Positions 5,582 through 60,074 of a DNA stretch of 63,506 bases are shown one piece after another (within the stretch, counting starts at the first letter, position 1; each line of letters starts with the position of its first letter). The notes below the pieces were generated by a model. That model was given only the letters and a program-made list of their open reading frames with translations, had not been told where the DNA came from and made no database searches. The stretch is taken from assembly GCA_002070055.1 (NCBI GenBank), contig MWCM01000006.1, positions 1-63,506 of the forward strand, written 5' to 3'. The position numbers and the translations under genes were made by a program. The DNA comes from a bacterium ADurb.Bin212 (lineage in GTDB: Bacteria; Patescibacteriota; UBA1384; XYA2-FULL-43-10).

Positions 5582-6232
5582 TTAAGACAAAAGTTGTTCA
5601 ACTTCTTTTAAATATTGTTTGGCAAGTTCGTAACTTTCATCTAATTCTTTGGCTTTGGCAAAAGCCTCTTTGGCGCTTAACAGTTTTGTTTTCCGATTGC
5701 TTTCCGACATCTGCACAATTCTGGCAGTTTGTAACCGTGCCAAACCTAAGTATGCCCAAGTTTCTTTGCTGTCTTTTTCCATTTCGAGTATTAGTTCTGT
5801 TTGTATCTCGGCTAATTGTGGTTCATTATCCTCTATCATTTTTTTGACTGTTTCTAGTCCTTCACTCACAGAAGAAGGGACTTTGTTGGCGGCAGCAAGC
5901 TGTTCAAGGTCTTTAATTGAATTTTTTTCTCTCAAAAAAGATTCAAGTTCTAAGAAATTGAGCTGAGCCTTGTTAGCCAGTTGGATTTTATTTTCAGCTT
6001 GGCAGCTTTTACATAGATAATCCGCTTTATGATACTCTACAATGGCCTCTAAATACTTTTTTTCTAGCAACAAGCTGTCGCCCTGAGCGGAAAAATTCTC
6101 CGCCATGTCTCTACGCAAGGGCAAAAGAGCAAAATACAAAACGGACACAAGCGCAGCTAAAGCGACAAGCCAAATAATAAATTTTTGATTTTTAATCTTT
6201 GACCCTGGCGAGGCCGTTTTGGTGCGGTTCAT
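5582..6232 (-). CDS. Membrane-anchored TPR-like/helical-repeat protein
   Basis: The track ORF is 5582..6307. The internal Met (MNRTKTASPGSKIKNQKFIIWLVALAALVSVLYFALLP) is preferred because the longer version overlaps the PAP2 gene by 116 nt. One N-terminal TM followed by TPR-like helices (YLEAIVEYHKADYL, AYLGLARLQ, AKEAFAKAKELD). The start remains uncertain. Confidence 0.55.
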   Translation of the reverse strand: MNRTKTASPGSKIKNQKFIIWLVALAALVSVLYFALLPLRRDMAENFSAQGDSLLLEKKYLEAIVEYHKADYLCKSCQAENKIQLANKAQLNFLELESFLREKNSIKDLEQLAAANKVPSSVSEGLETVKKMIEDNEPQLAEIQTELILEMEKDSKETWAYLGLARLQTARIVQMSESNRKTKLLSAKEAFAKAKELDESYELAKQYLKEVEQLLS

Positions 6233-6782
6233 ACCAAAATTTCTCCCATTTATGGACCATAATGTAGGATAAAATGCCGGAAGCTGTGCCCAGTAGCGCT
6301 CCGGCAATTACGTCGCTTGGGTAATGCAATCCGGCTCCTATGCGCGAAAGAGCTACCGCAATAGCAATAATAAGCAATGTTAAGCCCAATTTTTTATGTC
6401 CATATAGCAGAATTGATACGGCTATAGCAAATACTATGTAGGTGTGGCTAGAAGGGAAAGAGGCCATATCAACGGTAAATCTCTCTGGATTAGTGTTTAT
6501 GATGTCATCGGCATGCGCGATATATGGCCTGGGACGTTTCCAGAAGATGTAGATAGCCAAATCAATCATCCCAGCTATACCGATGGCAAAGAAAGAACAG
6601 ATTAAAGCGTTGATTCTTTTTGTCCATATGAGATATATAAAACTCAGAAACATAAGTACAATGCCGTATTTGGCAAAAAAAACATAAAATAATTGAACTT
6701 TATAATTCTTTATGCCCCAAAAATACATCGAATAAAGCCAACCGAAATCAATCGCTCTAATTTGATTTAATAAATTTTCCAT
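6192..6782 (-). CDS. PAP2-family (type 2) phosphatase, undecaprenyl-diphosphate/phosphatidic-acid phosphatase-like
   Basis: All three PAP2 motifs are present: KRPRP, PSSH and SRIGAGLHYPSD. Multiple TM helices. Confidence 0.85.
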   Translation of the reverse strand: MENLLNQIRAIDFGWLYSMYFWGIKNYKVQLFYVFFAKYGIVLMFLSFIYLIWTKRINALICSFFAIGIAGMIDLAIYIFWKRPRPYIAHADDIINTNPERFTVDMASFPSSHTYIVFAIAVSILLYGHKKLGLTLLIIAIAVALSRIGAGLHYPSDVIAGALLGTASGILSYIMVHKWEKFWYEPHQNGLARVKD

Positions 6783-6893: not shown

Positions 6894-8201
6894 ATGAAAG
6901 ACCTGTGGCAGTTGAAAAGAGAATTTTTAGAGCATTGCGAGATAGAGAAGGGGCAATCAAAATTAACTGTTGATAATTATGGTAGATATTTGGATCGATT
7001 TTTGTCTTGGCTGGGGGAATTTAATGTAAACACAACCACAGATATACTCCACAGATCGACACAGATGGGGAAACAGAGCAATAGAGAAACAGAGGAAGGC
7101 ACAAATCAAGAAATTGGAATATTAGATAATCAAGCCATGAAAGAGCAAGAAAATAGAGGTGAAGCTACTAAAGGGCTGGGAGTTGATGAGATAATGACTA
7201 AAAAGCTAGCTCCTGAATTAATAACCGATGAAACTGTTAGACAATATCGACTATATATCAATCGTCTGAGCGCTCCCGATGGCGGTGAGCTTAAACTAAC
7301 TACTCAAAATCACCATGTTTTGGCTCTACGCGCTTTTTTGCGTTATCTTTTGTCGCGCGGAGTCACAGTTCTGCCTCCAGAGAAGATCTCTTTAGCCAGA
7401 ACCGGCGAAAGAGAGATCAATTTTTTGAACAAGGAGGAGTATATTAGATTGCTTAAATCTCCAGACACTAAAGATGCCGAGGGTATCAGAGACCGGGCGG
7501 TATTGGAAACTTTATTTTCAACCGGCATGAGGGTATCTGAGATAGTAAACTGCAATATCGGTAGACTGAACCTGGAGCAGGGAGAAATATCTATTTTAGG
7601 TAAAGGTAAAAAGCTCAGAGTGGTGTTTTTATCGGAGAGCGCATGTTATTGGCTGGTTAAATATCTGATAATGAGAGGAGCGGTAATAGATCAAAAATCA
7701 AAAATCAAAAATCAAAAAGAAGATAACAAGGAGATTATCTCCACTGATTTAATCTACGGATCGGCACAGATCGGAGAAGTGTCTAACAGCAATATTGCTA
7801 ACGATTTATCAATACAACAATTTAGCAATTTATCTGTTTTAGATTCCTATAAAAATGATCCGCTATTTTTATCGTCTCGTGGCAATAGAATGAATGCCCG
7901 AGCCGTAGAAAGATTGATTAAAAAATACAAAAGGCTGGCGGGGATATCTAAGGACATCTCTCCTCACTCCTTGCGTCACACTTTTGCTACTGATTTATTA
8001 AGCGGTGGTGCAGATATTCGCAGTGTTCAATCTATGCTTGGCCACTCAAATCTCTCCACCACGCAAATTTACACTCATGTTACAGATCAGCATCTTCGTG
8101 AGGTGCACCGTCGTTTTCACGCGGCCAGCAACGAAGACTCCGCCACTGACGCAAGAAGTGCGGATTCCAGTTTTGATGATCAAAATAAAAAGGATCATTA
8201 A
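6894..8201 (+). CDS. Tyrosine recombinase, XerC/XerD family, with three low-complexity insertions and a C-terminal tail
   Basis: Catalytic signature is intact: RDRAVLETLFSTGMRVSE (Arg), HSLRHTFAT (HxxR) and LGHSNLSTTQIYTHV (His/Tyr). Core-binding N-terminus (FLEHCEIEKGQSKLTVDNYGRYLDRF). Extra segments lie at about aa 45-105 and 263-320. Confidence 0.85.
   Translation: MKDLWQLKREFLEHCEIEKGQSKLTVDNYGRYLDRFLSWLGEFNVNTTTDILHRSTQMGKQSNRETEEGTNQEIGILDNQAMKEQENRGEATKGLGVDEIMTKKLAPELITDETVRQYRLYINRLSAPDGGELKLTTQNHHVLALRAFLRYLLSRGVTVLPPEKISLARTGEREINFLNKEEYIRLLKSPDTKDAEGIRDRAVLETLFSTGMRVSEIVNCNIGRLNLEQGEISILGKGKKLRVVFLSESACYWLVKYLIMRGAVIDQKSKIKNQKEDNKEIISTDLIYGSAQIGEVSNSNIANDLSIQQFSNLSVLDSYKNDPLFLSSRGNRMNARAVERLIKKYKRLAGISKDISPHSLRHTFATDLLSGGADIRSVQSMLGHSNLSTTQIYTHVTDQHLREVHRRFHAASNEDSATDARSADSSFDDQNKKDH
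7690..7717 (+). repeat. Heptanucleotide tandem repeat (ATCAAAA)x4 in-frame inside the recombinase gene
   Basis: Read directly: atcaaaa atcaaaa atcaaaa atcaaaa. It encodes KSKIKNQK. Confidence 0.95.
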
Positions 8202-8208
8202 AGATCCT
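8182..8208 (-). terminator. Rho-independent terminator for the minus-strand small gene, overlapping the 3' end of the recombinase CDS
   Basis: Stem AGGATC/GATCCT (8191-8196 / 8203-8208) with a 6-nt loop. On the minus strand it is followed by TTTTATTTT (complement of 8182-8190). Confidence 0.55.
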
Positions 8209-8245
8209 AAATAAAGTGAGTTCAGCGAATGGGTGTTTTTACTGC

Positions 8246-8413
8246 TTAAGAGTTGTTGCGCAAGTCATCCCACATATCAAAGACCTCTACTTCGCAGAGA
8301 TCCGGTTGGGCGGCGCAGGCTGAAATTTCACTTTTTATCTGTTCTATACGTTGAAGTTCCGAGTTAATCGGGATTTCATCTAACTTATCTACTTTTTTGA
8401 TTTTTAATTGCAT
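8246..8413 (-). CDS. 55-aa acidic small protein with its own promoter and terminator
   Basis: Below the track cut-off. My translation: MQLKIKKVDKLDEIPINSELQRIEQIKSEISACAAQPDLCEVEVFDMWDDLRNNS*. Near-consensus promoter upstream and a hairpin plus U-tract downstream. No obvious SD. Confidence 0.55.
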   Translation of the reverse strand: MQLKIKKVDKLDEIPINSELQRIEQIKSEISACAAQPDLCEVEVFDMWDDLRNNS

Positions 8414-8428
8414 TTTGTTTTTGTGTTT

Positions 8429-8454
8429 CTAACCGCCTAATTTTTGGCGATTAG
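8429..8454 (-). promoter_or_regulatory. Inverted repeat overlapping the predicted +1 of the small-gene promoter (operator or 5' hairpin)
   Basis: CTAACCGCC (8429-8437), an 8-nt loop, then GGCGATTAG (8446-8454). In minus-strand RNA it is fully paired, with one G-U pair. Confidence 0.3.
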
Positions 8455-8457
8455 GTC

Positions 8458-8486
8458 ATTGTATCAAAAAAACGCCTCTATGTCAA
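8458..8486 (-). promoter_or_regulatory. Near-consensus sigma70 promoter (minus strand)
   Basis: Minus strand reads TTGACA (8486-8481), a 17-nt spacer, then TACAAT (8463-8458). Confidence 0.55.
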
Positions 8487-8524
8487 GGCATTTTGTGGTA
8501 TTGGTGGTTGATTTATAGCTGGGG

Positions 8525-8570
8525 AGCCCGCTGCCGGCTCGCGTGGCGTGAGCTCTTTTGGCAGCGGGCT
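8525..8570 (-). terminator. GC-rich 11-bp hairpin downstream of the candidate small ORF (no U-tract)
   Basis: AGCCCGCTGCC (8525-8535) pairs perfectly with GGCAGCGGGCT (8560-8570) across a 24-nt loop. Its role as a terminator or RNA structure is uncertain. Confidence 0.35.
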
Positions 8571-8586
8571 GGATCTCGGCTCGAAG

Positions 8587-8760
8587 TCAGTTCAGGTTGT
8601 GGCTGTCGACGCCGGGATTGAGGCACTCCATACACTCGTCACAGTTCGTTGGCCTACCCCTTTCGTCGGCGTTGGGGCAGCTTGGTCTTAGTATGGCGCA
8701 TCTCAGGACGACGACGATGTCAAAGAAAGTCCTTACGATAGCGCAAGCTTTTTGCAGCAT
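8587..8760 (-). CDS. Candidate 57-aa Cys-rich small ORF in a GC-rich island (alternatively a structured RNA)
   Basis: Minus-strand ATG at 8758-8760, with AAGGAGG 12 nt upstream. Translation: MLQKACAIVRTFFDIVVVLRCAILRPSCPNADERGRPTNCDECMECLNPGVDSHNLN* (6 Cys). It sits 47 nt downstream of the Mur-ligase stop. Local GC is far above the neighbours, so an open frame is weak evidence on its own. Confidence 0.3.
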   Translation of the reverse strand: MLQKACAIVRTFFDIVVVLRCAILRPSCPNADERGRPTNCDECMECLNPGVDSHNLN

Positions 8761-8807
8761 GGTGAGACATCACCTCCTTATTCGAGCACAGATTAAGACT
8801 TACAAAC

Positions 8808-10130
8808 TTAAGCCTTAAATCTTTGTTCGAGTTCTTTTTTTACGATCTTTCTGTCTGAAAATGGCACAAATTCGTGTAGCCCGACAGCCATGACCTCTTC
8901 GGCACCTTTACCGGTAATTATTACCACGTCATCCTTTTTAGCTTCACGAATCGCTTTTTTAATGGCCTGTTCACGATCAATCACTTTCCAATAATTTCTG
9001 TTTAATCTCCATTGATGTTTATTGCCTCCGCGGTGTATGCCCTCTGCTACCTCTTCCATGATTGTTAAAGGGTCTTCATCATAAGGATCCTCGTCTGTAA
9101 ATACTACTAAGTCGGCGTAACCACCGGCGAGTGCTCCCATAATTGGGCGCTTGGTTTTGTCGCGACGTCCTGTTGCGCCAAGTACGGCAATCATTCGTCC
9201 ACCACTCTTTTTGAGTCCATCTTTTATCGTTTCATATACATTTTTTAGAGAGTCAGGGTTATGTGCATAATCTACAATAACTGTAAAATCTTGTTTTTGG
9301 GAAACCCTAACTGATTCCATTCTGCCGGCAATACTTAAAATATTTTCCAGCCCCTGTTTGATAATATTGGGGTCGATCTCCAAGGCAACGCCAACACAAA
9401 AGGTAGCAAGGGCATTTAAGATATTAAATATGCCAGGCAGATTTAGATTAATTGTAATTTGCCCGTTGTCGTAAGCGGCTGTAAAGGTAGAGGAGTCAGG
9501 AGCGGTTAAAATCTTTCTGGCAACCGCGCCATGTTCCGGAGGATTCTTGACTGAATATAAGAACTTCTCCTTGCCAGGCACGGAGTAGAATTTGTTCCAG
9601 TTGGCGTCATCTCTGTTTATTATAAAAATAGCCTGCGGATGATCTTTAAAAACTTTTAACTTTGCATTTAAATAGTTCTCTTTGGTTTTATGGTATTCCA
9701 TGTGCTCGTGAGAGAGATTGGTGTAAACTAAAATATCGTAGTTTATACCGTGGATGCGGTTTTGATCTATGGCCTGGGAGGTGGTTTCAATTATGGCGTA
9801 TTCGCAACCTTCAATCACCGCTTGTTTCAAAAATCTTTGCAGAACGTTAGATGGAGGAGTGGTTACCCACTTATCTTTGGTGGTGTGGGGGATGATTTTT
9901 TCACCAAACTTGGTGTTAATGGTGGTTTCCATGGCGTTTTTAATGCCTGCGGCATCCAAAACACTGGCGATCATATTGCAAACTGTAGTTTTGCCTTTAG
10001 TACCGGTAACACCAATTACTTTTATTTTTCGGCTTGGTTTACCGTATTTTAAAACTGCCAAATTGGCCTCAACTTTGTGAAGCTTATTTTTAGTCTCTTG
10101 GGATAAAATTTTTGATAAGTATTTTTTCAT
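8808..10130 (-). CDS. Mur ligase family protein, MurE-like, apparently lacking the usual N-terminal domain
   Basis: P-loop VIGVTGTKGKTT. Also TNLSHEHMEYH, DYAHNPDS and VLGATGRRDKTKRP...VVFTDEDPYDEDP, as in MurE-type ligases. Only about 35 residues precede the P-loop. 440 aa. Confidence 0.85.
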   Translation of the reverse strand: MKKYLSKILSQETKNKLHKVEANLAVLKYGKPSRKIKVIGVTGTKGKTTVCNMIASVLDAAGIKNAMETTINTKFGEKIIPHTTKDKWVTTPPSNVLQRFLKQAVIEGCEYAIIETTSQAIDQNRIHGINYDILVYTNLSHEHMEYHKTKENYLNAKLKVFKDHPQAIFIINRDDANWNKFYSVPGKEKFLYSVKNPPEHGAVARKILTAPDSSTFTAAYDNGQITINLNLPGIFNILNALATFCVGVALEIDPNIIKQGLENILSIAGRMESVRVSQKQDFTVIVDYAHNPDSLKNVYETIKDGLKKSGGRMIAVLGATGRRDKTKRPIMGALAGGYADLVVFTDEDPYDEDPLTIMEEVAEGIHRGGNKHQWRLNRNYWKVIDREQAIKKAIREAKKDDVVIITGKGAEEVMAVGLHEFVPFSDRKIVKKELEQRFKA

Positions 10131-11077
10131 TTCCTTCTGATTTTTTCTGCGATTTTAAATAGATTATACTCAAATGGCCGCAGTATTAAATCCCAACTTC
10201 CAGCCAACCGGATTTCTTGCCCGCCAAACTTCTTTTTAAAATCTGTCACCCCTCGCCATGGGTGATTGGGTTCATTGGGCGGGGCGATACCGAAAAAGTC
10301 ATATTCGGTGCAGCCTCGTGATTTTGCCTCGCGAATTGCTGTCCACTGCAAAAGGTAGGGAGCCATCAAATTCTTGTATTCGTCGCTTGAGCCGCCAAAC
10401 AGATATATTGCCTTGTCTTGGTAGAAAGAAATTATCACCGAAGCAATGGGGATTTGATTTGCCTTCTTGTCTTCCGCATCATTCTTTATTCTTAATTCGT
10501 TATTCTGTTTCACAACGGCAGTAAACACCTTACAATAGCCTTTTGTGCTCAGTATGTCAATTAATTTTTGGAAATAAGCTGAGTTGCGATGGCTGATATT
10601 GTGTCTCTGAGACATGCTGGAATAGAGCTTGAAAAAGTTCTTGGTGTCTTTTTCCTCGACAATATTGATCTGATTCTTTTGTGCGACTTTAATATTGTAG
10701 CGACCCTTTTGCTTCATTTGTTTAAGTATTTCGTCTTCTGGTTTACTTATATCCAGAACAAGTGTGTGTTCCGGTTGCATCTCCTCAAATGCTTTTTTAA
10801 AAAGTGAATGATGATTGATGAATGATGAATTATGGAGCGGGACATCGAGCTCTAGCCTATAAAATATTGACCTATTATCACGAGCTATATCTTTAATTTG
10901 TTCCAAAAATCTGTTATTCATTATTCGTTCTTCGTTATTCACCATGGGGCTATACAGCATGTTTCTCCCCATGGGTAGACTTTTTTGTAACACCAAAATA
11001 TCATTGATACGATATGACTTTTGATATCCGGTGGCCAATTTAAAAGCTTCCCACTCGGGGCTTTGGAATAAATTCAT
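10127..11077 (-). CDS. FemAB/FemX-family peptidoglycan interpeptide-bridge aminoacyltransferase
   Basis: N-terminal FQSPEWEAFK, C-terminal GVTDFKKKFGG and the overall length (316 aa) are typical of the FemAB family. A 4-nt overlap couples it to the Mur ligase. Confidence 0.8.
   Translation of the reverse strand: MNLFQSPEWEAFKLATGYQKSYRINDILVLQKSLPMGRNMLYSPMVNNEERIMNNRFLEQIKDIARDNRSIFYRLELDVPLHNSSFINHHSLFKKAFEEMQPEHTLVLDISKPEDEILKQMKQKGRYNIKVAQKNQINIVEEKDTKNFFKLYSSMSQRHNISHRNSAYFQKLIDILSTKGYCKVFTAVVKQNNELRIKNDAEDKKANQIPIASVIISFYQDKAIYLFGGSSDEYKNLMAPYLLQWTAIREAKSRGCTEYDFFGIAPPNEPNHPWRGVTDFKKKFGGQEIRLAGSWDLILRPFEYNLFKIAEKIRRK
10481..10508 (-). repeat. Heptad-periodic run inside femX-like gene
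   Basis: Plus strand: attcttt attctta attcgtt attctgt. The sense strand encodes NNELRIKND and contains the 13-mer GAATTAAGAATAA, shared with 56414-56426 and 61920-61932. Confidence 0.85.
10805..10832 (-). repeat. Heptad tandem repeat (TGAATGA-like x4) inside femX-like gene
   Basis: tgaatga tgattga tgaatga tgaatta. The sense strand encodes NSSFINHHS. Confidence 0.9.
10914..10941 (-). repeat. Heptad tandem repeat (TTATTCA-like x4) inside femX-like gene
   Basis: ttattca ttattcg ttcttcg ttattca. The sense strand encodes NNEERIMNN. Confidence 0.9.
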
Positions 11078-11100
11078 GAGTTCATTTTAACAAATTTATC

Positions 11101-11141
11101 GTGAAAAGAGAAAGGCCGCCACGGTGGCACCGAGGCGGCCT
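11101..11141 (-). terminator. Rho-independent terminator after the 69-aa ORF
   Basis: AGGCCGCC (11113-11120) pairs with GGCGGCCT (11134-11141). On the minus strand it is followed by TTCTCTTTTCAC. Confidence 0.6.
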
Positions 11142-11169
11142 CCTGCTCCCTGAGCGGCTATGCGTGATG

Positions 11170-11379
11170 TTAATGGCGTGGTGCGAACAGTGGAACGTTC
11201 GGCGGCAGGTTGTGGCGTGTCTTGTTGTGCTCGAAGACTATGCAGGTTCCATCTTGGCATTGTTGGTAGAACCGGCAGTCCGTTGGCACATCTCCCAACA
11301 TGACCGTGACCGAATCGCCGCAGACTATATCTTTTGCGTCGAGCGGGTCGCCCATACCCAATCCAGTAGCTTCGCTCAT
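11170..11379 (-). CDS. Candidate 69-aa Cys-containing small protein in a GC-rich island
   Basis: AGGAGGA plus a 6-nt spacer plus ATG. Translation: MSEATGLGMGDPLDAKDIVCGDSVTVMLGDVPTDCRFYQQCQDGTCIVFEHNKTRHNLPPNVPLFAPRH. It has its own terminator. About 55-60% GC against the AT-rich flanks. Confidence 0.45.
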   Translation of the reverse strand: MSEATGLGMGDPLDAKDIVCGDSVTVMLGDVPTDCRFYQQCQDGTCIVFEHNKTRHNLPPNVPLFAPRH

Positions 11380-11479
11380 TGTGTTTCCTCCTCTCTGGGA
11401 GAGATCTGTTTCTGTCCTTATTTTAATAACAGTTTAAGAAATAGAAAAGTGGATAAATTTGTGTTAGAATTCGTTAGTT

Positions 11480-12679
11480 ATGAAATATGAACATAATGAT
11501 CAAATTAAAATACTTGCTATCGAAACTTCGTGCGATGAAACCAGCGTGGCGGTTATTGGTGTAGAAAATGGAAATCCAGTGATTTTGTCGAATGTTGTAA
11601 GCTCACAAATTGATTTACACGCAAAAACGGGCGGGGTGGTGCCGGAAGTTGCTTCGCGTGCGCACATGGAGGCAATGATACCTGTAATTAAAGAAGCCCT
11701 ATTAAGGGCTAATTCAAAATTTAAAATTCAAAATTTAAAATTCAATGAAAATTCTAAATTAGAAATTGAAAATTCTCTTAAAGAGATAACACATGTTGCG
11801 GTGACGGCTGGACCGGGTTTGATTGGTTCACTGCTTGTTGGATTTAACACTGCAAAATCGCTTGCCTACGCGCTGGATCTCCCGATTATTCCGGTAAATC
11901 ATATCGAAGGACATATATACTCGGCATTAGCTGAGAAATTTTCAATTTTCAATTTTCAATTTTCAAATAAATCACATATTCAAAATTCAAGATCTGTTAC
12001 CTGCAACCTATCACCCGCAACCTTTCCCATTTTAGCCCTTACGGTTTCTGGAGGACATACATCGCTGACATTAGTCCACAATCATGGTGAATACGAAAAC
12101 ATCGGGCAAACTTTGGATGATGCGGCGGGGGAGGCTTTTGATAAAGTGGCGAAACTACTGGGGCTCGGTTACCCTGGTGGCCCGGAAGTATCAAAAATTG
12201 CAAAACAGTATCGAAATACAAAAAATGGTGATGATACTATTGAACTGCCACTACCCTTGTCTAGAGATAATTCCTGTAATTTTTCATTCTCCGGATTGAA
12301 AACGGCAGTCATAAATGTTTGGCGGAAAGCGGAGGAAGAATATGAAAATCAGCCGGAAAAAATTGAGGAATTTAAAGCTGAGTTGGCGGCAAAGTTCGAG
12401 GAAACTGCGATCGCCCACTTAATCGATAAAACGCTAAAAGCGTTGAGGGCAACTGGTGCTAAGAATGTTGTACTAGCCGGAGGCGTTTCGGCAAACAATT
12501 ATTTAAGAGAGAATATGCAAAAAGAGTTGAAAGGCTTGGGTGTTGCGTTGTTAATGCCACCAATGGAATTGTGTGGCGATAATGCCGCTATGATTGGGCT
12601 AGCCGCTTATTATCATATTATTAGGGAAAACGTCTCAAATTGGCATGAGATCAAGATAGATTCCAATTTCAGGCTATAG
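11480..12679 (+). CDS. tsaD: tRNA N6-adenosine threonylcarbamoyltransferase TsaD (Kae1/Gcp family) with two heptad-repeat insertions
   Basis: ILAIETSCDETS, NHIEGH metal motif, VSGGHTSL, GYPGGP, LAGGVSAN and CGDNAAMIG. Confidence 0.92.
   Translation: MKYEHNDQIKILAIETSCDETSVAVIGVENGNPVILSNVVSSQIDLHAKTGGVVPEVASRAHMEAMIPVIKEALLRANSKFKIQNLKFNENSKLEIENSLKEITHVAVTAGPGLIGSLLVGFNTAKSLAYALDLPIIPVNHIEGHIYSALAEKFSIFNFQFSNKSHIQNSRSVTCNLSPATFPILALTVSGGHTSLTLVHNHGEYENIGQTLDDAAGEAFDKVAKLLGLGYPGGPEVSKIAKQYRNTKNGDDTIELPLPLSRDNSCNFSFSGLKTAVINVWRKAEEEYENQPEKIEEFKAELAAKFEETAIAHLIDKTLKALRATGAKNVVLAGGVSANNYLRENMQKELKGLGVALLMPPMELCGDNAAMIGLAAYYHIIRENVSNWHEIKIDSNFRL
11711..11780 (+). repeat. Ten consecutive heptads in-frame in tsaD (insertion 1)
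   Basis: aattcaa aatttaa aattcaa aatttaa aattcaa tgaaaat tctaaat tagaaat tgaaaat tctctta. Encodes NSKFKIQNLKFNENSKLEIENSL. Confidence 0.9.
11937..12027 (+). repeat. Thirteen consecutive heptads in-frame in tsaD (insertion 2)
   Basis: aattttc x4, then aaataaa tcacata ttcaaaa ttcaaga tctgtta cctgcaa cctatca cccgcaa cctttcc. Encodes FSIFNFQFSNKSHIQNSRSVTCNLSPAT, lying between the HIEGH and SGGHT motifs. Confidence 0.9.
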
Positions 12680-12687
12680 TTTGTATA

Positions 12688-14139
12688 CTAGTATGCTGGG
12701 CCCAGATTTCCTCCGCCAACAAACTGCCAGTTATATCTTTCGCTGGAGTTTGCTCCAAGGAATTTCATGGCCGTAGGGCTGATATCTAGGCCTGCAGCAT
12801 TAGAACCTTGATCTTCACAGCCTCCAAGATTGACTCCGCTTTCAACAGACGGCCTATTTGGCCCACATACATAATCAGCATCTTTTATATTGCAAGGGCC
12901 GGAATCGACTACGGCTAAAATTACTGATTTGCCATTGTTTGGATTGGTAACTTTTATCTTCATACAATTTTTAATATCTCCTTTGCATTGAGAAGCAATT
13001 TGTGAATATGGCAGGGAAGCAAAGTATTGAGTTGGAGCGTTGCATCCGGTGCTGATACCGCTTGAACCAATACAGTTATCCCCGCTATCAGCACACTTGC
13101 CATTGCTGCCACACCCAGCAAAAGTGGTTGTGCGCACAGACGTGTGTAATATTTCTTTACAATTGCATACAAATGGGTCTTTAAGAGCTGTAAGACCTGA
13201 GTATGTAATTGGTGCAACTATCTTGAAATCTCTACTCTCGCTGGTAGGTATCAGTATGTCTGGGTTAATATCTTGTTTAACTAACGGGTCTGGAACAACA
13301 TAGGTCTTGATCGAAAAACCATTGATCCAGCTTTGGTATTTTTGTTCATCTGTAAGGCCAGAAAGGCTAAAATCAAATTTTATTTCAGTCGTCTTTAATA
13401 ATGAGTCTAAGGGCATATTTATTGTCTGCAGACTTTTTCCTGAAGTTGAGATACTGTTTGATGCCGACCAGTTTGAAGTAACCGCAAACACCTCGAACTT
13501 TACGGTAGCTTTTGGCACGGCAGTGCTATTCATGCCAATAGAGATATTTGAGACTCTTGATACTGGTATCGAAAATGTGGCAGAACTTGGTGCCTGTCTA
13601 TTCTTGAGTTGGTTAATCGAGATATTATTTCTTAAGTAGTGGACATCCCATTTACTTAAGTGATAAAAACCGTTGTATCCAGATTGATATTTAGAGCCAT
13701 TATAAATGCTGTGCATCAGATCTGTTTCTCGATCAATAAAAAAATTTGTCGAACTAGCAGGGCTTAACATTTTTGACATTAAAGAGCTTCCTGCGGCGGC
13801 CTTTACAATAAAACCACTAATTTTCTTGGCATTATATTTTTCACCTGATAGAAATACTGTGTAGCCACAAGGCAAGGGGTTGTTGACAGTGACACTATAA
13901 TTACCATTGGCGTCAGTGGTACTGGAAGATGAATCGCCCTTAGCGTCAACCAACATTACATTTACACCGGCTGCGGCCTTTCCGAATGAAGTGTTGTCCA
14001 AGCTTTCAAAAACCTTCCCTTTTATTACTACGCTAGTTGAGATCTCGTCTGCTCCAATAAAATTCAGCGACAGCAAAAGGGCAGTGACGGCTAAAGCAAC
14101 AATCAGAAAAATTGAAATTCTAATATTTTTTATTTTCAT
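12688..14139 (-). CDS. Secreted protein: carboxypeptidase-regulatory-like N-terminal domain plus Cys-rich C-terminal RlpA/expansin-like double-psi beta-barrel
   Basis: Start moved to the internal ATG (14137-14139), which has GAGGGG plus a 6-nt spacer. Signal/TM segment ISIFLIVALAVTALLLSL. GKVFE...AAAGVNVMLVD...TDANGNYSVTV. The C-terminal KVTNPNNGKSVILAVVDSGP...GLDISPTAMKFLG resembles the RlpA DPBB domain. Confidence 0.65.
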   Translation of the reverse strand: MKIKNIRISIFLIVALAVTALLLSLNFIGADEISTSVVIKGKVFESLDNTSFGKAAAGVNVMLVDAKGDSSSSTTDANGNYSVTVNNPLPCGYTVFLSGEKYNAKKISGFIVKAAAGSSLMSKMLSPASSTNFFIDRETDLMHSIYNGSKYQSGYNGFYHLSKWDVHYLRNNISINQLKNRQAPSSATFSIPVSRVSNISIGMNSTAVPKATVKFEVFAVTSNWSASNSISTSGKSLQTINMPLDSLLKTTEIKFDFSLSGLTDEQKYQSWINGFSIKTYVVPDPLVKQDINPDILIPTSESRDFKIVAPITYSGLTALKDPFVCNCKEILHTSVRTTTFAGCGSNGKCADSGDNCIGSSGISTGCNAPTQYFASLPYSQIASQCKGDIKNCMKIKVTNPNNGKSVILAVVDSGPCNIKDADYVCGPNRPSVESGVNLGGCEDQGSNAAGLDISPTAMKFLGANSSERYNWQFVGGGNLGPAY

Positions 14140-14253
14140 CTCTAACCCCTCATTAATACAATTTGTGAATAATTCTAACATATATTGTTTATTGCTACTA
14201 GATAAAAAACAGCTTTGATTCAAGTAATTTTTATGGTAATCTTATAAATAAAT

Positions 14254-16689
14254 ATGATGAAGAATATTAATAAAACTTGGGATCACAAGAAGCACGAAGC
14301 GAAGCTTTATGAAAACTGGGAGAAATCCGGCTATTTTAAGCCTGAAGTCAACATTGAGGAGACTACACGGACAAACACAGATAATGCAGAAGAGAAAGGG
14401 CTACTCGCTACTGACTACTCGCTACAAGCTAATAAAAACCCTTTCGTAATAGCTATACCGCCACCTAATGTCACGGGACAGCTTCATATTGGCCATGCAC
14501 TATTTGCAACTCTTCAAGATATAATGATCCGTTATCATCGTTTACAGGGCGAACCTTCGCTCTGGATCCCAGGCACAGACCACGCCGGCATTGCCACTCA
14601 AACCGTCGTAGACAAAATGCTTAAGAAACAGGGTATTAATCGTTTTGAAATTGGGCGAGAGAAGTTTTTAGAGCATGTTTGGAAATGGAAAGAGGAGTAC
14701 GGGGGCAAAATCAACCAGCAGTTGCGTGCTGTTGGTTCAAGTTGTGATTGGAGCCGTGAGCGGTTTACCTTAGATGATGGCTTGTCCCGTGCCGTTAATG
14801 AAGCTTTCGTTCATCTCTATAAAAAAGGACTAATTTATCGAGGTGAATATATCGTGAATTGGTGCCCAAAGTGTGGAACAGCTATTGCTGACGACGAAGT
14901 TGAATATACCGAGCAAAAAGGCAAGCTTTACTTCTTTAAATATGATAAGGACTTTCCTATATCAATAGCTACCACCCGCCCCGAAACGAAATTTGGTGAT
15001 GCAGCTGTGGCAGTAAATCCCAGCGACAAAAGATATAAAGAATTTATCGGAAAAAGCTACAATATCTGCCTGGATGGGGTCCAAAGGAATATTCAAATCA
15101 TCGCTGACAGATCGGTCGATTCCACTTTTGGAACGGGTGCAGTTGGTGTAACCCCGGCTCACTCAGCTGTAGACTGGCGAATGGGCGAGGAGCACGATTT
15201 ACCGCGCGTAAAGGTTATCAATGAGCGTGGCCGAATGACAGAAGAGGCCGGTGAAAAATATTCCGGACTCAAAACCGCAGAAGCAAGACAGAAGCTGGTT
15301 GAATACTTGCACTCTAATAATCTTTTGGAGAAGGAGGTGGAGCTCGATAATAATCTTTCGGTTTGTTATCGCTGTGCTACCGCAATTGAGCCGATTCCCA
15401 GTTTGCAGTGGTTTGTAAAAATGAAACCATTGGCAGAAAAGGCCAAAGAGGCGGTGGAGAGTAATCAGATAGAGATTATCCCTAAGCGCTTTGAAAAGGT
15501 TTATTACCATTGGATGGACAACATACGTGACTGGTGTATTAGCCGGCAGCTTTGGTGGGGACATCGAATACCAGTATGGTACCCGAAATCAAAAATCAAA
15601 AATCAAAGATCAAAAAGTGGAACTGATGATTCAGCTACTGACAACTATCAACTAGAAGCTAAAGATATTTATGTTGGCATAGAGCCACCTAAAGATATTG
15701 AAAATTGGATTCAGGATGAGGATGTACTGGATACATGGTTCTCTTCAGCACTTTGGCCATTTAGCACTCTTGGCTGGCCGGACGAGACAGCAGATTATAA
15801 AGCTTTCTACCCCAATACGGTTATGGAAACAGGTTATGACATTCTCTTTTTCTGGGTGGCACGGATGATAATGATGGGTTTGGAGCTAACTGATCAAGTG
15901 CCTTTTAAAACTGTTTACCTTCATGGCCTTGTGCGTGATGAGAAAAATCGCAAGATGAGTAAATCGTTGGGTAATGGCATAGATCCCTTAGAGGTAATTG
16001 ACAAATATGGCGCTGATGCCTTGCGTATGGCTTTGGTTGTGGGGTCTGCTCCTGGCCAAGATATACCGGTGGGAGAAAATAAAATCCGCGGTTATCGAAA
16101 TTTTTCCAACAAAATTTGGAATGCTTCGCGTTTTGTGGTTTTGCGTGTCTCTGAAGGAGACTTGCGAGAAGGGGAGATCGGAAAATTTGAAATCCAGGAT
16201 ATAGAATACAGTGAGAAATTATTGACTGAGGCAGATAAAGAGATACTGAAAAAACATCAGGAAGTTAAGGCTAAAGTCAAAAAATACCTAGATGAATTTA
16301 AATTTTCTTTGGCTGGCGAAACTCTTTACGAATACTTCTGGCATACCTTTTGCGATATTTATATCGAGCAGGCGAAAAGACAGTTGGAGACAGAAGAACA
16401 AAAAAACAAAGAAACTGAAAAACAAAAGAACAGTGGAACAGAAGGGCAGAAGGACATTGAAAATTTTGATATTGAGCATTCATTGAAAATTGAAAATTGT
16501 AAAATTGAAAATTCTAAACTTCCCCAAAACACTAAAAAAATTCTCATAAAAATCCTTTCAGAAAGTTTAGTGATGCTTCATCCTTTTGTGCCATATGTTA
16601 CTGAATCGGTTTGGCAGGAGCTAAGAGAGATATGTCCTACTCTCTCGGAGTCCATTATGATCTCAAAATGGCCCTCTGTTTCTGAATAA
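14254..16689 (+). CDS. valS: Valine--tRNA ligase with low-complexity insertions
   Basis: HIGH motif (PPPNVTGQLHIGHAL), KMSKS motif (RKMSKSLGNG), TTRPET, WCISRQLWWGHRIP and the ValRS-like N-terminus YENWEKSGYF. Confidence 0.95.
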   Translation: MMKNINKTWDHKKHEAKLYENWEKSGYFKPEVNIEETTRTNTDNAEEKGLLATDYSLQANKNPFVIAIPPPNVTGQLHIGHALFATLQDIMIRYHRLQGEPSLWIPGTDHAGIATQTVVDKMLKKQGINRFEIGREKFLEHVWKWKEEYGGKINQQLRAVGSSCDWSRERFTLDDGLSRAVNEAFVHLYKKGLIYRGEYIVNWCPKCGTAIADDEVEYTEQKGKLYFFKYDKDFPISIATTRPETKFGDAAVAVNPSDKRYKEFIGKSYNICLDGVQRNIQIIADRSVDSTFGTGAVGVTPAHSAVDWRMGEEHDLPRVKVINERGRMTEEAGEKYSGLKTAEARQKLVEYLHSNNLLEKEVELDNNLSVCYRCATAIEPIPSLQWFVKMKPLAEKAKEAVESNQIEIIPKRFEKVYYHWMDNIRDWCISRQLWWGHRIPVWYPKSKIKNQRSKSGTDDSATDNYQLEAKDIYVGIEPPKDIENWIQDEDVLDTWFSSALWPFSTLGWPDETADYKAFYPNTVMETGYDILFFWVARMIMMGLELTDQVPFKTVYLHGLVRDEKNRKMSKSLGNGIDPLEVIDKYGADALRMALVVGSAPGQDIPVGENKIRGYRNFSNKIWNASRFVVLRVSEGDLREGEIGKFEIQDIEYSEKLLTEADKEILKKHQEVKAKVKKYLDEFKFSLAGETLYEYFWHTFCDIYIEQAKRQLETEEQKNKETEKQKNSGTEGQKDIENFDIEHSLKIENCKIENSKLPQNTKKILIKILSESLVMLHPFVPYVTESVWQELREICPTLSESIMISKWPSVSE
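14401..14435 (+). repeat. Heptad tandem repeat (CTACTCG-like x5) in-frame near the valS N-terminus
   Basis: ctactcg ctactga ctactcg ctacaag ctaataa. Encodes LLATDYSLQANK, just upstream of the HIGH region. Confidence 0.9.
15588..15615 (+). repeat. Heptanucleotide repeat (ATCAAAA)x4, one variant unit, in-frame in valS
   Basis: atcaaaa atcaaaa atcaaag atcaaaa. Encodes KSKIKNQRSK. Same unit and same reading frame as 7690-7717. Confidence 0.95.
16456..16519 (+). repeat. Heptad-periodic run (TGAAAAT family) in-frame in the valS C-terminal region
   Basis: attgaaa attttga tattgag cattcat tgaaaat tgaaaat tgtaaaat tgaaaat tctaaac. Encodes IENFDIEHSLKIENCKIENSK. It is preceded by a CAGAAG-rich run at 16383-16455. 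Confidence 0.85.
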
Positions 16690-28531: not shown

Positions 28532-28566
28532 AATTTAAAATTTAAAATTTTCAATTTAAAATAAAT
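28532..28566. repeat. Intergenic heptad run (AATTTAA family)
   Basis: aatttaa aatttaa aattttc aatttaa aataaat. Further on, caagaaacaataaccaaa (28592-28609) is identical to 62047-62064 inside the GT4 gene. Confidence 0.85.
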
Positions 28567-55834: not shown

Positions 55835-57154
55835 GTGAAAAATGATTATTTTAATAAAATAGTATATTTAATTGTTGCTCTTTTGCCGCTAGAAAGACTG
55901 CTAACTTTTGATCTATTTGGCTACACCGTTAAGCCGGCATATTTATTGGCAATTATTTATGTTATTTTTGTGGTTTATAAATACTTCAGAAAAACTTTAT
56001 TCCGAAATTTAGTGCCAATAATTATGCAAAAAATTAAGAAAGAAGAGCTATGGACGCTTATCTTAGTCCTTTGGTCATTTTTGTCTTGTTTGTGGTCTTT
56101 GGCGCCAAGACGAACTTTGGTCATGTCTGCTCTATTAGCCTTTATGGTTTTGATGTTTATGCTGTTGCGTCGTAAGCTGGATTTCGAGATGCGCCAAAAG
56201 ATACTACACATAATTACAAACACCGGGATTGCGGTGTCGGTGTTTGCAATTATTCAGTTTTTTCTCGAGCATTATTTTAGTCATAGCGCTGCTTTACTAA
56301 GAGAGCAATATGGTAGCCAGCTCTTTGGTTTTGCCCGCCCCCAAGCCACATTTTTAGAGCCGCTTTATTTGGCAAACTTTTTGCTGTTCCCAATTTTTAT
56401 CGAACTGAATAAAGAATTAAGAATAATGAATAAAGGCGAAAACGGTAATATTCAATATTCAATATTCAATATTCAAATTTTGAAAAGAAATTTAGCTTTG
56501 GTTTTGATGCTAGTAGCGTTTATTGTAACTCTCTCGAGGGGAGCATATTTGGGTTTAACGGTTGGTTTTGTAGCATTTGTGACAACCTTGGCTTTTGTCA
56601 AAGCAATCAATTGGCAGAAACTTGGAGGCATAATTGTTGCCACATTAATATCAATTTTTGTTTCTCTTGTTATAATTTATGCTGTGTCTGGCACAACAGG
56701 TGTAAATAACTTTGTTGGTCACGCCATAAAAACATCAGATCTTGCTCCAACTAATGAGATCGAGGCTTTGCAAAATAGGAGGTTGTCGGGAGAAGTTGCC
56801 TTTCAAAATTTTGTTCAGAATCCTATCTTTGGAAGCGGGCTAGCTTCATTTGGTGCCCTGCCACAGTTCAAAGAGTTGCGAAAAATTGGTGAGTGGCAAA
56901 CGGTTAACAATCAATATCTGGAAATTGCTACCGAACTGGGGCTCGTTGGCCTGTTGCTATTTTTAGCAGTAGTTTATTCAGGTATCAGGTATCAGGTATC
57001 AGGTATTAGAAAGGGAAAATACGATAATATCGTATTTTTGGGCTGGATAGTATCGGTTATAGTGCAGTATTTTACTTTCTCTTCAATATATCTTTTATAT
57101 CTTTGGGTATTTTTGGCGATTATTTGGCCTATAAACGAAGAGAAACAAGCTTAA
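55835..57154 (+). CDS. O-antigen ligase/polymerase family (Wzy/WaaL-like) membrane protein 1, with heptad-repeat insertions
   Basis: About 11 TM helices and the TLSRGAYLG motif. GTG start in the track. Confidence 0.75.
   Translation: MKNDYFNKIVYLIVALLPLERLLTFDLFGYTVKPAYLLAIIYVIFVVYKYFRKTLFRNLVPIIMQKIKKEELWTLILVLWSFLSCLWSLAPRRTLVMSALLAFMVLMFMLLRRKLDFEMRQKILHIITNTGIAVSVFAIIQFFLEHYFSHSAALLREQYGSQLFGFARPQATFLEPLYLANFLLFPIFIELNKELRIMNKGENGNIQYSIFNIQILKRNLALVLMLVAFIVTLSRGAYLGLTVGFVAFVTTLAFVKAINWQKLGGIIVATLISIFVSLVIIYAVSGTTGVNNFVGHAIKTSDLAPTNEIEALQNRRLSGEVAFQNFVQNPIFGSGLASFGALPQFKELRKIGEWQTVNNQYLEIATELGLVGLLLFLAVVYSGIRYQVSGIRKGKYDNIVFLGWIVSVIVQYFTFSSIYLLYLWVFLAIIWPINEEKQA
56407..56483 (+). repeat. 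Eleven consecutive heptads in-frame (GAATAAA family x4, then TATTCAA x4)
   Basis: gaataaa gaattaa gaataat gaataaa ggcgaaa acggtaa tattcaa x4 attttga. Encodes NKELRIMNKGENGNIQYSIFNIQIL. Confidence 0.92.
56981..57008 (+). repeat. Heptad tandem repeat (GGTATCA)x3 plus a variant unit
   Basis: ggtatca ggtatca ggtatca ggtatta. Encodes GIRYQVSGIR. Confidence 0.95.
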
Positions 57155-58688: not shown

Positions 58689-60074
58689 TTGATTGCAGGC
58701 GTCAAATTGCTTGAAAAGAAAAATGTCAAAATAGTTGGTTATAAAACGTTGGATTTATTACTTGGTCTAACGATATTTTTGATACCGTTCTATTTTATCA
58801 GATTCAAAATTTTGGGCATACCAACCAATATCTTTGAGCTTGGAGTTTTGTTGTTGCTAATAGCTACGCTAATGCAAGCAACAATAACCAAAAAACAATA
58901 TCCAGTTAATAACCAAACTCAAAAAGATCAAAACCACAAAACCTTTAACCATTATTCTTTATTTATAATTCTTTTTTTCTTGTCGTTTCTAATGGGGTCA
59001 TCAAAGGCTGGTTATAGCCTTGATTCATTGGGTATTGTCAAAAGTTACTTTGTTGTGCCAGTGGTATTGGGTTTAGCTATCAGCTATCAGCTATCAGCCT
59101 TTAGGGGACACATAAACCCAAAACCTATAACCCAAAACCTGAAACCTATTTTCTTTGGGTTTTATCTCTCATTGCTAATTGTTTCTCTTTGGGCGATTTT
59201 GCAAAAGTTTGGCATACTTACAACACTTTTCTATCAAGTGGGCGATATATCATTCAACCAATATCTTGGAGACAATTTCCGCGCTTTTGGACCATTTGAG
59301 TCACCAAATTATTTGGCGATGTATATCGTGCCGATTTTGTTTTTAACGATCGGGATAATGCAAAATGCAAAATGCAAAATGCAAAAAATTTGGAAGGTAA
59401 TGTTTAATCTAACTTTGATTTTGCCGTTGATTGCGTTGATCTTTACTAAATCAAGGGCTGGAATTATAGCTTTAGCGGTATCATTGTCACTACTCTTAAT
59501 TTTCTGGATTTACCAAAACCTCAAATCCAAAGCGGGAAAAGTTATTATAATTTCTGGTAGCTTAATTCTGTATTCTGTATTCTTAATTCTAGTTACAAAG
59601 TACGGTTTGCGTCCGGAAACTGATTCTGCCAGATTCGAAATATACTCATATTCATGGCAGATGATCGTCGAAAACCCGATCTTTGGTATCGGTTTGGGCG
59701 GTTTTCAAAACTATTTATCCGCTATACCAATATCTGTTTCATTTAGGGAGATAATACTTCCATATGCTTATCACCCTCACAATCTATACATGTCATTATG
59801 GTTAAATGTTGGTTTGCTGGGGCTAATATCATTTATTGGCATAGTAGTATGTGTTATTGGGCAATATTTTGTAAACAATCCCGGCAAAAAGAGGCTCAAT
59901 AACGCTGGAATTTTTATGATTTTGGCCTTAGTTTCGATTTTAATACATGGTATTTTGGATACCACATATTTCAAAAACGATCTTTCGGCAATTTTTTGGG
60001 TGACAATAGCCTTAATATTAACACAAACCGATTTAAAATTGGCAGGTCGCGCCAGTAGTTTAAGCGATAAATGA
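58689..60074 (+). CDS. O-antigen ligase/polymerase family membrane protein 2, with heptad-repeat insertions
   Basis: About 12 TM helices and the TKSRAGIIAL motif. TTG start in the track. Confidence 0.72.
   Translation: MIAGVKLLEKKNVKIVGYKTLDLLLGLTIFLIPFYFIRFKILGIPTNIFELGVLLLLIATLMQATITKKQYPVNNQTQKDQNHKTFNHYSLFIILFFLSFLMGSSKAGYSLDSLGIVKSYFVVPVVLGLAISYQLSAFRGHINPKPITQNLKPIFFGFYLSLLIVSLWAILQKFGILTTLFYQVGDISFNQYLGDNFRAFGPFESPNYLAMYIVPILFLTIGIMQNAKCKMQKIWKVMFNLTLILPLIALIFTKSRAGIIALAVSLSLLLIFWIYQNLKSKAGKVIIISGSLILYSVFLILVTKYGLRPETDSARFEIYSYSWQMIVENPIFGIGLGGFQNYLSAIPISVSFREIILPYAYHPHNLYMSLWLNVGLLGLISFIGIVVCVIGQYFVNNPGKKRLNNAGIFMILALVSILIHGILDTTYFKNDLSAIFWVTIALILTQTDLKLAGRASSLSDK
59075..59151 (+). 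repeat. Eleven consecutive heptads in-frame (AGCTATC x3, then CCCAAAA/CCTATAA family)
   Basis: agctatc x3 agccttt aggggac acataaa cccaaaa cctataa cccaaaa cctgaaa cctattt. Encodes ISYQLSAFRGHINPKPITQNLKPI. Confidence 0.92.
59357..59384 (+). repeat. Heptad tandem repeat (AATGCAA)x4 in-frame
   Basis: aatgcaa x4. Encodes MQNAKCKMQK. The same unit recurs intergenically at 62691-62704. Confidence 0.95.

Follow-up and report, generated by a model that had tools for sequence, protein, structure and literature searches.

We analyzed a stretch of 63,506 nucleotides (nt), hereafter the window, which corresponds to contig MWCM01000006.1 (C6) in the genome of bacterium ADurb.Bin212 (GCA_002070055.1; Patescibacteriota, UBA1384, XYA2-FULL-43-10), and focused on a short A-rich word, ATCAAAA, that is tandemly repeated inside unrelated genes. 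Tandem arrays in the window were called by Tandem Repeats Finder (TRF). Two strong arrays of this word were found, each inside an open reading frame (ORF):

7690-7718, + strand: perfect (ATCAAAA)x4.1, inside the tyrosine recombinase ORF 6894-8201
15586-15616, + strand: AAATCAA x4.4 with 91% matches and one A>G change, inside the valS ORF 14254-16689

Thus, the four-unit arrays that an earlier note on this DNA had reported for these two genes are both real. Allowing at most one mismatch, a 14-mer of the repeat matched 11 times in the window (0.38 expected), and six of these 11 matches were overlapping placements inside the two strong arrays. The first host is an Xer-like tyrosine recombinase. 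ORF 6894-8201 (+) matched the Pfam family Phage_integrase (E 2.9e-45) and carries its catalytic domain with the conserved R..H..R..H/Y residues; R213, K240, H358, R361, H384 and Y393 were invariant in an alignment of 28 sequences. The array is read in the ORF frame as ...VIDQKSKIKNQKED... / ...DQKSKIKNQKED... and accounts for residues 266-275 (DQKSKIKNQK), which open a lineage-specific insertion according to orthologue comparison. An AlphaFold model built with the 28-row alignment had a confident core and a mean predicted local distance difference test (pLDDT) score of 76.8; pLDDT drops from 77 to 40 across residues 261-300, and the array residues begin that stretch. The same ORF (P0001) also contains two loosely alike segments, NTTTDILHRSTQMGKQ (residues ~45-60) and EIISTDLIYGSAQIGEV (residues ~277-292), for which no DNA-level repeat was found within the source genome by blastn.

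The second host, ORF 14254-16689 (+), encodes valyl-tRNA synthetase (ValRS), with a class I core (Pfam tRNA-synt_1, E 7e-146) and full-length similarity to PDB entry 1GAX (E 1.3e-185 over residues 59-712). Here the array is read as ...YPKSKIKNQRSKSG... / ...PKSKIKNQRSKSG... and lies in the variable loop between the motifs WWGHRIPVWY and DEDVLDTWF.

The earlier note had also stated that the word stands in the same reading frame in its hosts, that independent slippage would not be expected to yield one unit and one frame again and again, and that either orientation-dependent counter-selection or copying of a pre-formed cassette would fit. The frames in fact differ: the recombinase has its first ATC at codon position 2, valS at codon position 3. 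Frames 0, 1 and 2 of (ATCAAAA)n read IKNQKSK, SKIKNQK and QKSKIKN, which are one cyclic peptide. Because 7 and 3 are coprime, 21 nt of repeat pass through all three frames, and so the shared KSKIKNQ says nothing on origin. The case against independent events fails in both respects: the frame is a matter of arithmetic, and recurrence of the unit is expected (see below). When the flanks were compared with the genome by blastn-short, identity between the recombinase and valS ended at the 30-nt tract, and the sequence shared beyond the repeat, defined termini and target-site duplication that characterize a mobile element were not found. Both strong arrays lie on the + strand, so that the statement that the word occurs in genes of both strands does not apply to them; other parts of the genome have minus-strand genic cases, at C5:10004 and C8:47836.

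The two arrays belong to a much larger set. The source genome (G000) comprises 1.22 Mb in 74 contigs, has a GC content of 39% and is rated 100% complete. At a TRF score of at least 40 it contained 72 period-7 arrays with 34 canonical units, compared with 1, 17 and 18 arrays of periods 6, 8 and 9, respectively. Each of five genomes simulated with a fifth-order Markov model contained none of period 7. Arrays of periods 8, 9 and 12 (17, 18 and 39) were also above the simulated values (~0-9), yet far under period 7. Perfect period-7 runs outnumbered those of other periods only from ~2.6 units upward and ended at 31 nt. The commonest canonical units were AAAATTT (13), AATAATG (10), AAAAATC (6) and AAAATTG (5). 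A sister species of the same genus (G001) had 43 arrays in 655 kb.

Using a crude gene call (1156 ORFs covering 90% of bases), 36 of the 72 arrays were genic, 28 were intergenic and 8 lay at gene edges. Per base, arrays are still enriched between genes, yet half of them sit in genes. All 24 host ORFs tested, which carry 34 of the 36 genic arrays, had a Pfam match, one of them weak and partial (a methylase); the two hosts left out include a doubtful short ORF. The hosts include ValRS, leucyl-tRNA synthetase (LeuRS), a class II synthetase, the recombinase, TsaD, FemAB, RecG, UvrD, LepA, MiaA, MnmA, KsgA, TGT, Dus, Fpg, a 5'-3' exonuclease, GPI and two Wzy_C proteins, among others. The LeuRS ORF (983 aa; G000:C7:53825-56776, locus L184) also contains a NUDIX domain (Pfam E 2.8e-17, residues 407-528), which separates the editing domain from the second half of the catalytic core. 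The arrays at C5:8907 and C5:17622 share one identical 29-mer; identity of this kind at unrelated sites would suit a dispersed cassette, and open-frame selection could also produce it.

Tracts of the ATCAAAA type of at least 14 nt, with at most one mismatch per 14, were present at 61 loci of the genome. Those of at least 21 nt comprised 6 genic sense, 0 genic antisense and 3 intergenic tracts, and those of 14-20 nt comprised 38 genic sense, 8 genic antisense, 2 gene-edge and 4 intergenic tracts. Since A-rich 14-mers in genes favor the sense strand by 3.0 to 1 as a background, the sense bias is informative only for the long tracts. For these, stop codons explain it, since all three antisense frames of (ATCAAAA)n contain TGA. 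The proposed counter-selection of the TTTTGAT orientation is therefore upheld for long genic tracts, all of which are sense in this genome-wide count, which the earlier note had called for. Taken together, the specific inference of that note is mostly explained away, and the underlying phenomenon is real.

Stop codons and orientation set genic arrays apart more generally. The consensus unit of the 36 genic arrays was open on the sense strand only in 15 cases, on both strands in 7, on the antisense strand only in 8 and on neither in 6, so that 22 were open on the sense strand; 21 of 36 non-genic consensus units had stops on both strands. Genic arrays with a sense-closed consensus survive by imperfect units or by a 1-nt insertion. 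Of the genic arrays, 31 of 36 had their A-rich strand as the sense strand, the exceptions including those in TsaD (11937-11966) and FemAB (10805-10834). Heptamers rich in A/T (A>=4, A+T>=6) fall into 54 classes, of which no more than 9 are stop-free in cyclic reading, among them AAAAATC, AAAATTC and AAATATC, which are the units that occur as clean genic arrays. Recurrence of one unit in unrelated genes is explained by this scarcity of stop-free A/T-rich heptamers. A replication-strand asymmetry was also considered as a cause and set aside: 777 of 1025 genes were co-oriented with the G-rich strand, and hence the effects of transcription and replication are inseparable.

High-identity arrays were bimodal in length: one class, at 15-19 nt, was of chance level, another mode stood at 28-33 nt, and none exceeded 33 nt. 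In the source genome together with 655 kb of the sister species, at a TRF score of at least 36, the length classes were distributed as follows:

Genic arrays: 25 below 27 nt, 55 of 27-34 nt, 1 of 35-48 nt and 7 of at least 49 nt (total 88)
Intergenic arrays: 19 below 27 nt, 33 of 27-34 nt, 11 of 35-48 nt and 3 of at least 49 nt (total 66)

The 35-48 nt class was thus much rarer in genes (1 of 88) than between them (11 of 66; Fisher p 0.0004), and four of the seven long genic arrays measured 49-56 nt. This scarcity fits three-unit (21 nt) steps in genes: genic arrays would stand at ~30 nt or ~50-56 nt because only three-unit changes keep the frame.

Comparison with relatives revealed that particular protein loops are hot spots for such arrays. 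Among ValRS orthologues from 23 related genomes, at least 10 carried heptamer arrays of other units in the loop after WWGHxIPxWY (AAACCTC, AAGTCGA, AAAGTTA, AAATTCC, AAGTTGA, AAATCCC, AATTTAA and others), and 7 had a short loop of 4-9 residues. On a quick ValRS tree (20 rows, loop removed, SH-aLRT support only; 10 of 30 loci without a full ORF and the motif left out), the long-loop label required 5 changes, at least 4 of which the well-supported branches make unavoidable; 147 of 500 shuffles performed equally well. One pair of the same genus (L002 and L021) differs in array state; this difference may reflect allele replacement, because the adjoining 60 nt differ too. For the recombinase, the source genome's array is also present in the closest relative (L032; best segment 71% identical), another relative (L031) has AAGATCA and AATATCC arrays at the array site, and more distant orthologues have a short loop. 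The insertion of L032 also contains ENTTTDLLHRSAQM in two tandem copies.

Array density varied among relatives. The surroundings of valS in 29 relatives contained 54 arrays in 133 kb, and the 25 best recombinase loci contained 21 arrays vs 3 in the 55 more distant ones. Three further genomes had 5 arrays per 140 kb (G006), 0 per 140 kb (G013) and 8 per 120 kb (G023). Across the phylum, (ATCAAAA)4 with at most two mismatches was found in 29 of 401 sampled Patescibacteria genomes (27 of 320 genera). A backward-read control pattern matched 11 genomes and is not a clean null, as G122 and G165 (13 and 18 hits) suggest arrays of other units.

A hairpin-forming element of ~100 nt with inverted ends, GTCATTCCGAG...CTCAGAATGAC, was also seen in frame beside heptamer arrays (L013:2867-3016, L031:2311-2419 and L150:8243-8331). 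One relative has it inside valS and another inside the recombinase, these two copies being 86% identical, and a third copy lies in the sister species. The source genome has only a 33-nt fragment, on C46, and the window lacks the element. Elhai and co-workers reportedly described, in 2008, small dispersed repeats within the heptamer repeats of Nostoc; the relatives studied here are similar in having a hairpin element beside heptamer arrays in ORFs.

The arrays show stability inside the species and turnover from one species to another. Contigs from the runs of three studies cross the 7690 and 15586 arrays without insertion or deletion and with ~0.4-1% substitutions; this comparison is one of contigs (spanning runs X2 and X3), in which rare variants are hidden, and uncovered parts in X1 and X6 are uninformative. 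Public-run contigs tended to end at 7690-7719 and at 11711-11969, probably because ~31-nt tracts that are repeated elsewhere break de Bruijn assemblies, and thus arrays may be under-assembled in metagenome-assembled genomes (MAGs).

Between the two species of the genus, 19 orthologous sites were aligned. Two GAATAAT arrays were identical (31/31) within aligned surroundings that were 83-87% identical, and the LeuRS array differed by three parallel A/G changes with its length kept. The site at C20:12692 held a different family in each species (+6 nt), including the characteristic GAATTAAG variant of that family. Several arrays of the source genome were missing in the sister species, one of them (C20:10014) with the gene start unchanged. 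Turnover is thus partly concerted. The length differences (+18, +33, +6 and -9 nt) were not simple multiples of 21, and clean insertion boundaries could not be recognized, either here or in the L002/L021 pair, whose flank also differs.

The remaining sites and arrays in the window include two weak ATCAAAA sites and several arrays of other units:

6181-6202, - strand: degenerate tract of 3.1 units with 80% matches, at the minimum TRF score of 30
8395-8408, - strand: a pair of units carrying a single mismatch, where the 55-aa ORF 8246-8413 starts, without a TRF row
10481-10506 and 10914-10941: weaker arrays in the FemAB ORF 10127-11077 (-)
10805-10834, - strand: TGAATGA x4.3 in the same FemAB ORF, sense strand T-rich
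11711-11775, + strand: composite AATTCAA/AATTTAA, 9.7 units with 70% matches, inside the TsaD ORF 11480-12679
11937-11966, + strand: perfect (AATTTTC)x4.3, inside TsaD
16482-16513, + strand: ATTGAAA x4.4 with one 8-nt unit, in the valS C-terminal insertion (SLKIENCKIENS)
28532-28562, + strand: intergenic AATTTAA x4.4, of the commonest unit family of the genome, with stops on both strands
56407-56435, 56447-56476 and 56978-57006, + strand: GAATAAA, AATATTC and TCAGGTA, in the Wzy_C ORF 55835-57154
59075-59098, 59114-59148 and 59357-59386, + strand: AGCTATC, AAACCTA and AATGCAA, in the Wzy_C ORF 58689-60074
62228-62258, + strand: AATATCC x4.4, in ORF 61314-62669

The two weak sites are near chance level. 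The first had been assigned to a minus-strand tetratricopeptide repeat (TPR) gene. It is read in frame as GSKIKNQKF in ORF 5582-6307; the TPR label is unsupported, since no Pfam family matched that ORF at E<=0.001. The tract crosses the TAA stop of the PAP2 ORF 6192-6782 as well as the N-terminal tail of the next minus-strand ORF. The PAP2 ORF (stop at 6192-6194) overlaps this next ORF by up to 116 nt (6192-6307), and an ATG near 6231 would give the latter a short basic tail followed by a hydrophobic helix. The second site does lie at the start of the 55-aa ORF, as had been noted, and amounts to only two imperfect units.

The consensus unit of the 16482-16513 array in valS is closed by TGA on the sense strand, and its extra base steps over the TGA; in TsaD (11937-11966) the sense strand is T-rich (FSIFNFQFS), and the antisense strand would read TGA. 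A period-8 array, AACAAAAA x4.5 (16397-16432), adjoins the heptamer array in the valS C-terminal insertion. AATTTAA arrays of ~31 nt (C1:8952, C1:23406, C5:20202, window 28532-28562 and elsewhere) frequently have ...AATTTAAAAT as their last bases, with AATG coming within a few bases, and may sit directly upstream of start codons. A general promoter or leader role was considered and rejected, as only 5 of the 36 non-genic arrays lay within 30 nt upstream of a called start (with crude gene calls).

We therefore consider that the ATCAAAA tracts belong to a class of heptanucleotide simple-sequence repeats (SSRs) that is filtered by stop codons, reading frame and peptide chemistry, and assign this interpretation a probability of roughly 0.6. 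Arrays would arise in place by slippage-like tandem duplication in a 7-nt register, starting from chance seeds and in either orientation. Four filters would then act on them in genes: an orientation with a stop in its cyclic reading could not persist; the frame would be kept only by three-unit (21 nt) changes; an A-rich sense strand would give hydrophilic K/N/S/Q/E/I peptides of the kind that surface loops tolerate; and arrays would be accepted only in permissive protein loops. Several observations weigh against this origin. Simple slippage adds single units, and thus only a burst or an import could bring about a gain of three in an essential gene. No enrichment is seen for periods 1-6 although none of 31 genomes of the order yielded a MutS_V domain (11 of 14 control genomes did), which indicates that the process is not generic slippage. 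There is no length polymorphism among strains, as judged from contigs. Eight genic arrays of the ATTGAAA and GAATAAT families are in the stop-closed orientation though their other strand is open; since the genes are essential, a perfect precursor with such a consensus would have been impossible there. Non-genic arrays are oriented too, with A-rich and G-rich strand coinciding in 21 of 28, which neither stops nor peptide chemistry can explain. The ~30-nt mode (~4.3 units) is also found between genes (33 of 66 arrays at 27-34 nt), where no frame filter acts, so that the four-unit mode is not a product of the reading frame. Finally, the unit may be swapped at constant length between the two species, as in AAATTTA vs AAAATCA (C17:13965) and AATGCAA vs AATTTAA (C6:59357). 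Loss of mismatch repair was rejected as the cause: MutS_V was likewise not found in the array-poor G013, one of the 31 genomes, so that its absence does not discriminate, and such a loss would not explain a period of exactly 7.

Some of these difficulties would be removed if arrays were pre-formed modules of ~30 nt, copied or overwritten from other arrays by ectopic template switching, gene conversion or an element-like process. We regard this as possible but rather unlikely. The swaps at C17:13965 and C6:59357 and the switch to another family at C20:12692, complete with its GAATTAAG variant, would be natural consequences, as would the narrow lengths of ~30 nt, intergenic arrays included, and the eight stop-closed genic arrays, which are hard to obtain by slippage in situ. 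Furthermore, all 10 coding copies of the GAATAAT family (6 in G000 and 4 in the fetched part of G001) use the TTA-AGA or TTA-CGA solution, three ATTGAAA arrays (two genic and one intergenic) have a common layout in which the third unit is 8 nt long and (c/a)attc flanks the left side, and the imperfect variant ATCAAAT turns up again in several of the phylum's families. Against copying stand the 34 different units, the end of recombinase-valS identity at the tract without target-site duplication or terminal repeats, and the lack of a candidate enzyme. In addition, non-coding GAATAAT copies vary freely in their middle units, and thus the shared coding variant may reflect selection; terminal units seem conserved partly since the ends of an array are where matches stop. 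A related proposal, which we put forward only as a speculation with odds well against it, is that Patescibacteria arrays are written as ~30-nt quanta of about four units by reiterative copying, through either a replication/repair-intrinsic or a dedicated activity, and that the same process also overwrites existing arrays with another unit at unchanged length.

It appears improbable that the arrays are selected DNA- or RNA-level elements, such as binding sites or unstructured leaders, whose presence in genes is secondary. The two GAATAAT arrays that are more conserved than their surroundings, the AATTTAA arrays that often end a few bases before an ATG, the tendency of non-genic arrays (21 of 28) to follow the local G-rich strand in their orientation and the constant length among strains would all agree with such a role, whereas units differ at one site between genera, the sister species lacks the C20:10014 array and keeps the gene start as it is, only 5 of 36 non-genic arrays are close upstream of a called start, and no Rfam family matched in the window. 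Phase variation, in which gain or loss of 7-nt units would switch genes on and off, is very improbable. The unit length is not a multiple of 3, and heptanucleotide phase-variable repeats are known in Haemophilus (the part of PMC8262952 considered here); however, the hosts are essential housekeeping genes (ValRS, LeuRS, TsaD, RecG, UvrD and similar), the arrays occupy loops in the middle of genes and not 5' ends or promoters, and the 7690 and 15586 arrays had no indel in the contigs of three studies, in which rare variants can be hidden. Compositional noise or an assembly artefact is almost certainly not the explanation and is already refuted for the strong arrays. Although the genome is A/T-rich with an A-rich sense strand and the weak sites at 6181 and 8395 are near chance, the simulated genomes yielded 0 period-7 arrays vs 72, the strong arrays recur in independent contigs from the runs of three studies, and arrays are also present in related MAGs from other projects.

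The heptanucleotide SSR class favored here has known counterparts. As described in the part of PMC4692102 considered here, heptamer SSRs are over-represented in bacteria with a preference for four units, and a slippage hypothesis involving the polymerase footprint has been linked to them, the origin in place proposed above being of that kind; for the G-rich repeats of Xanthomonas and Nostoc, the four-unit bias was attributed to G-quadruplex formation. Similar to the short tandemly repeated repetitive (STRR) sequences of Calothrix and Nostoc and to the GGGAATC repeats of Xanthomonas treated in that part, the arrays studied here consist of tandem 7-nt units dispersed over the genome, show a specific excess of period 7 among long SSRs, prefer about four units (mode 28-33 nt) and vary in sequence and length between related species. 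The STRR and GGGAATC repeats are described there as G-rich, mostly intergenic and under-represented in coding regions, whereas half of the present arrays are genic, some in essential genes, and their units are A/T-rich, cannot form a G-quadruplex and occur in Patescibacteria. Like the contingency SSRs of Haemophilus, to go by the part of PMC8262952 noted above, the arrays have short tandem units of a length indivisible by three; in contrast to them, they have housekeeping hosts and fixed in-frame lengths, and no unit-number polymorphism was seen at 7690-7718 or 15586-15616 in the spanning contigs of X2 and X3. Tandem repeats of Borgs, in the portion of PMC9879509 used here, likewise arise inside ORFs, add low-complexity and probably disordered segments and turn over fast; by comparison, the present arrays have a 7-nt unit that keeps the frame only every three units, are short (~30 nt) and lie in a cellular genome.

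The over-representation of heptamer SSRs was thus known already. We found no paper joining heptamer repeats with Patescibacteria, the candidate phyla radiation or Berkelbacteria (supplementary files aside), and none tying a heptamer SSR excess to essential coding regions. One practical consequence concerns annotation, as KSKIKNQ-like, NNELRIMNN-like and SLKIENC-like peptides in proteins of this kind are by-products of the repeat and not motifs.

The excess of heptamers in bacteria was noted earlier and hardly studied, as far as the part of PMC4692102 considered here indicates, and it was never explained. This genome and its relatives form a clean natural data set for that question, in which A/T-rich units that form no quadruplex still prefer four copies. 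If arrays were indeed written as ~30-nt quanta, the four-unit preference of G-rich heptamers elsewhere would be a property of the mechanism rather than the result of selection for G-quadruplexes, and these bacteria would possess an engine that plants 10-residue loops in essential proteins, as in the several separate changes in one ValRS loop. The arrays in essential genes make reading frame and stop codons visible as filters, and one protein loop can be traced across genera; with such a data set, comparative genomics can test both where the repeats originate and what part they play in supplying reduced genomes with new protein loops.

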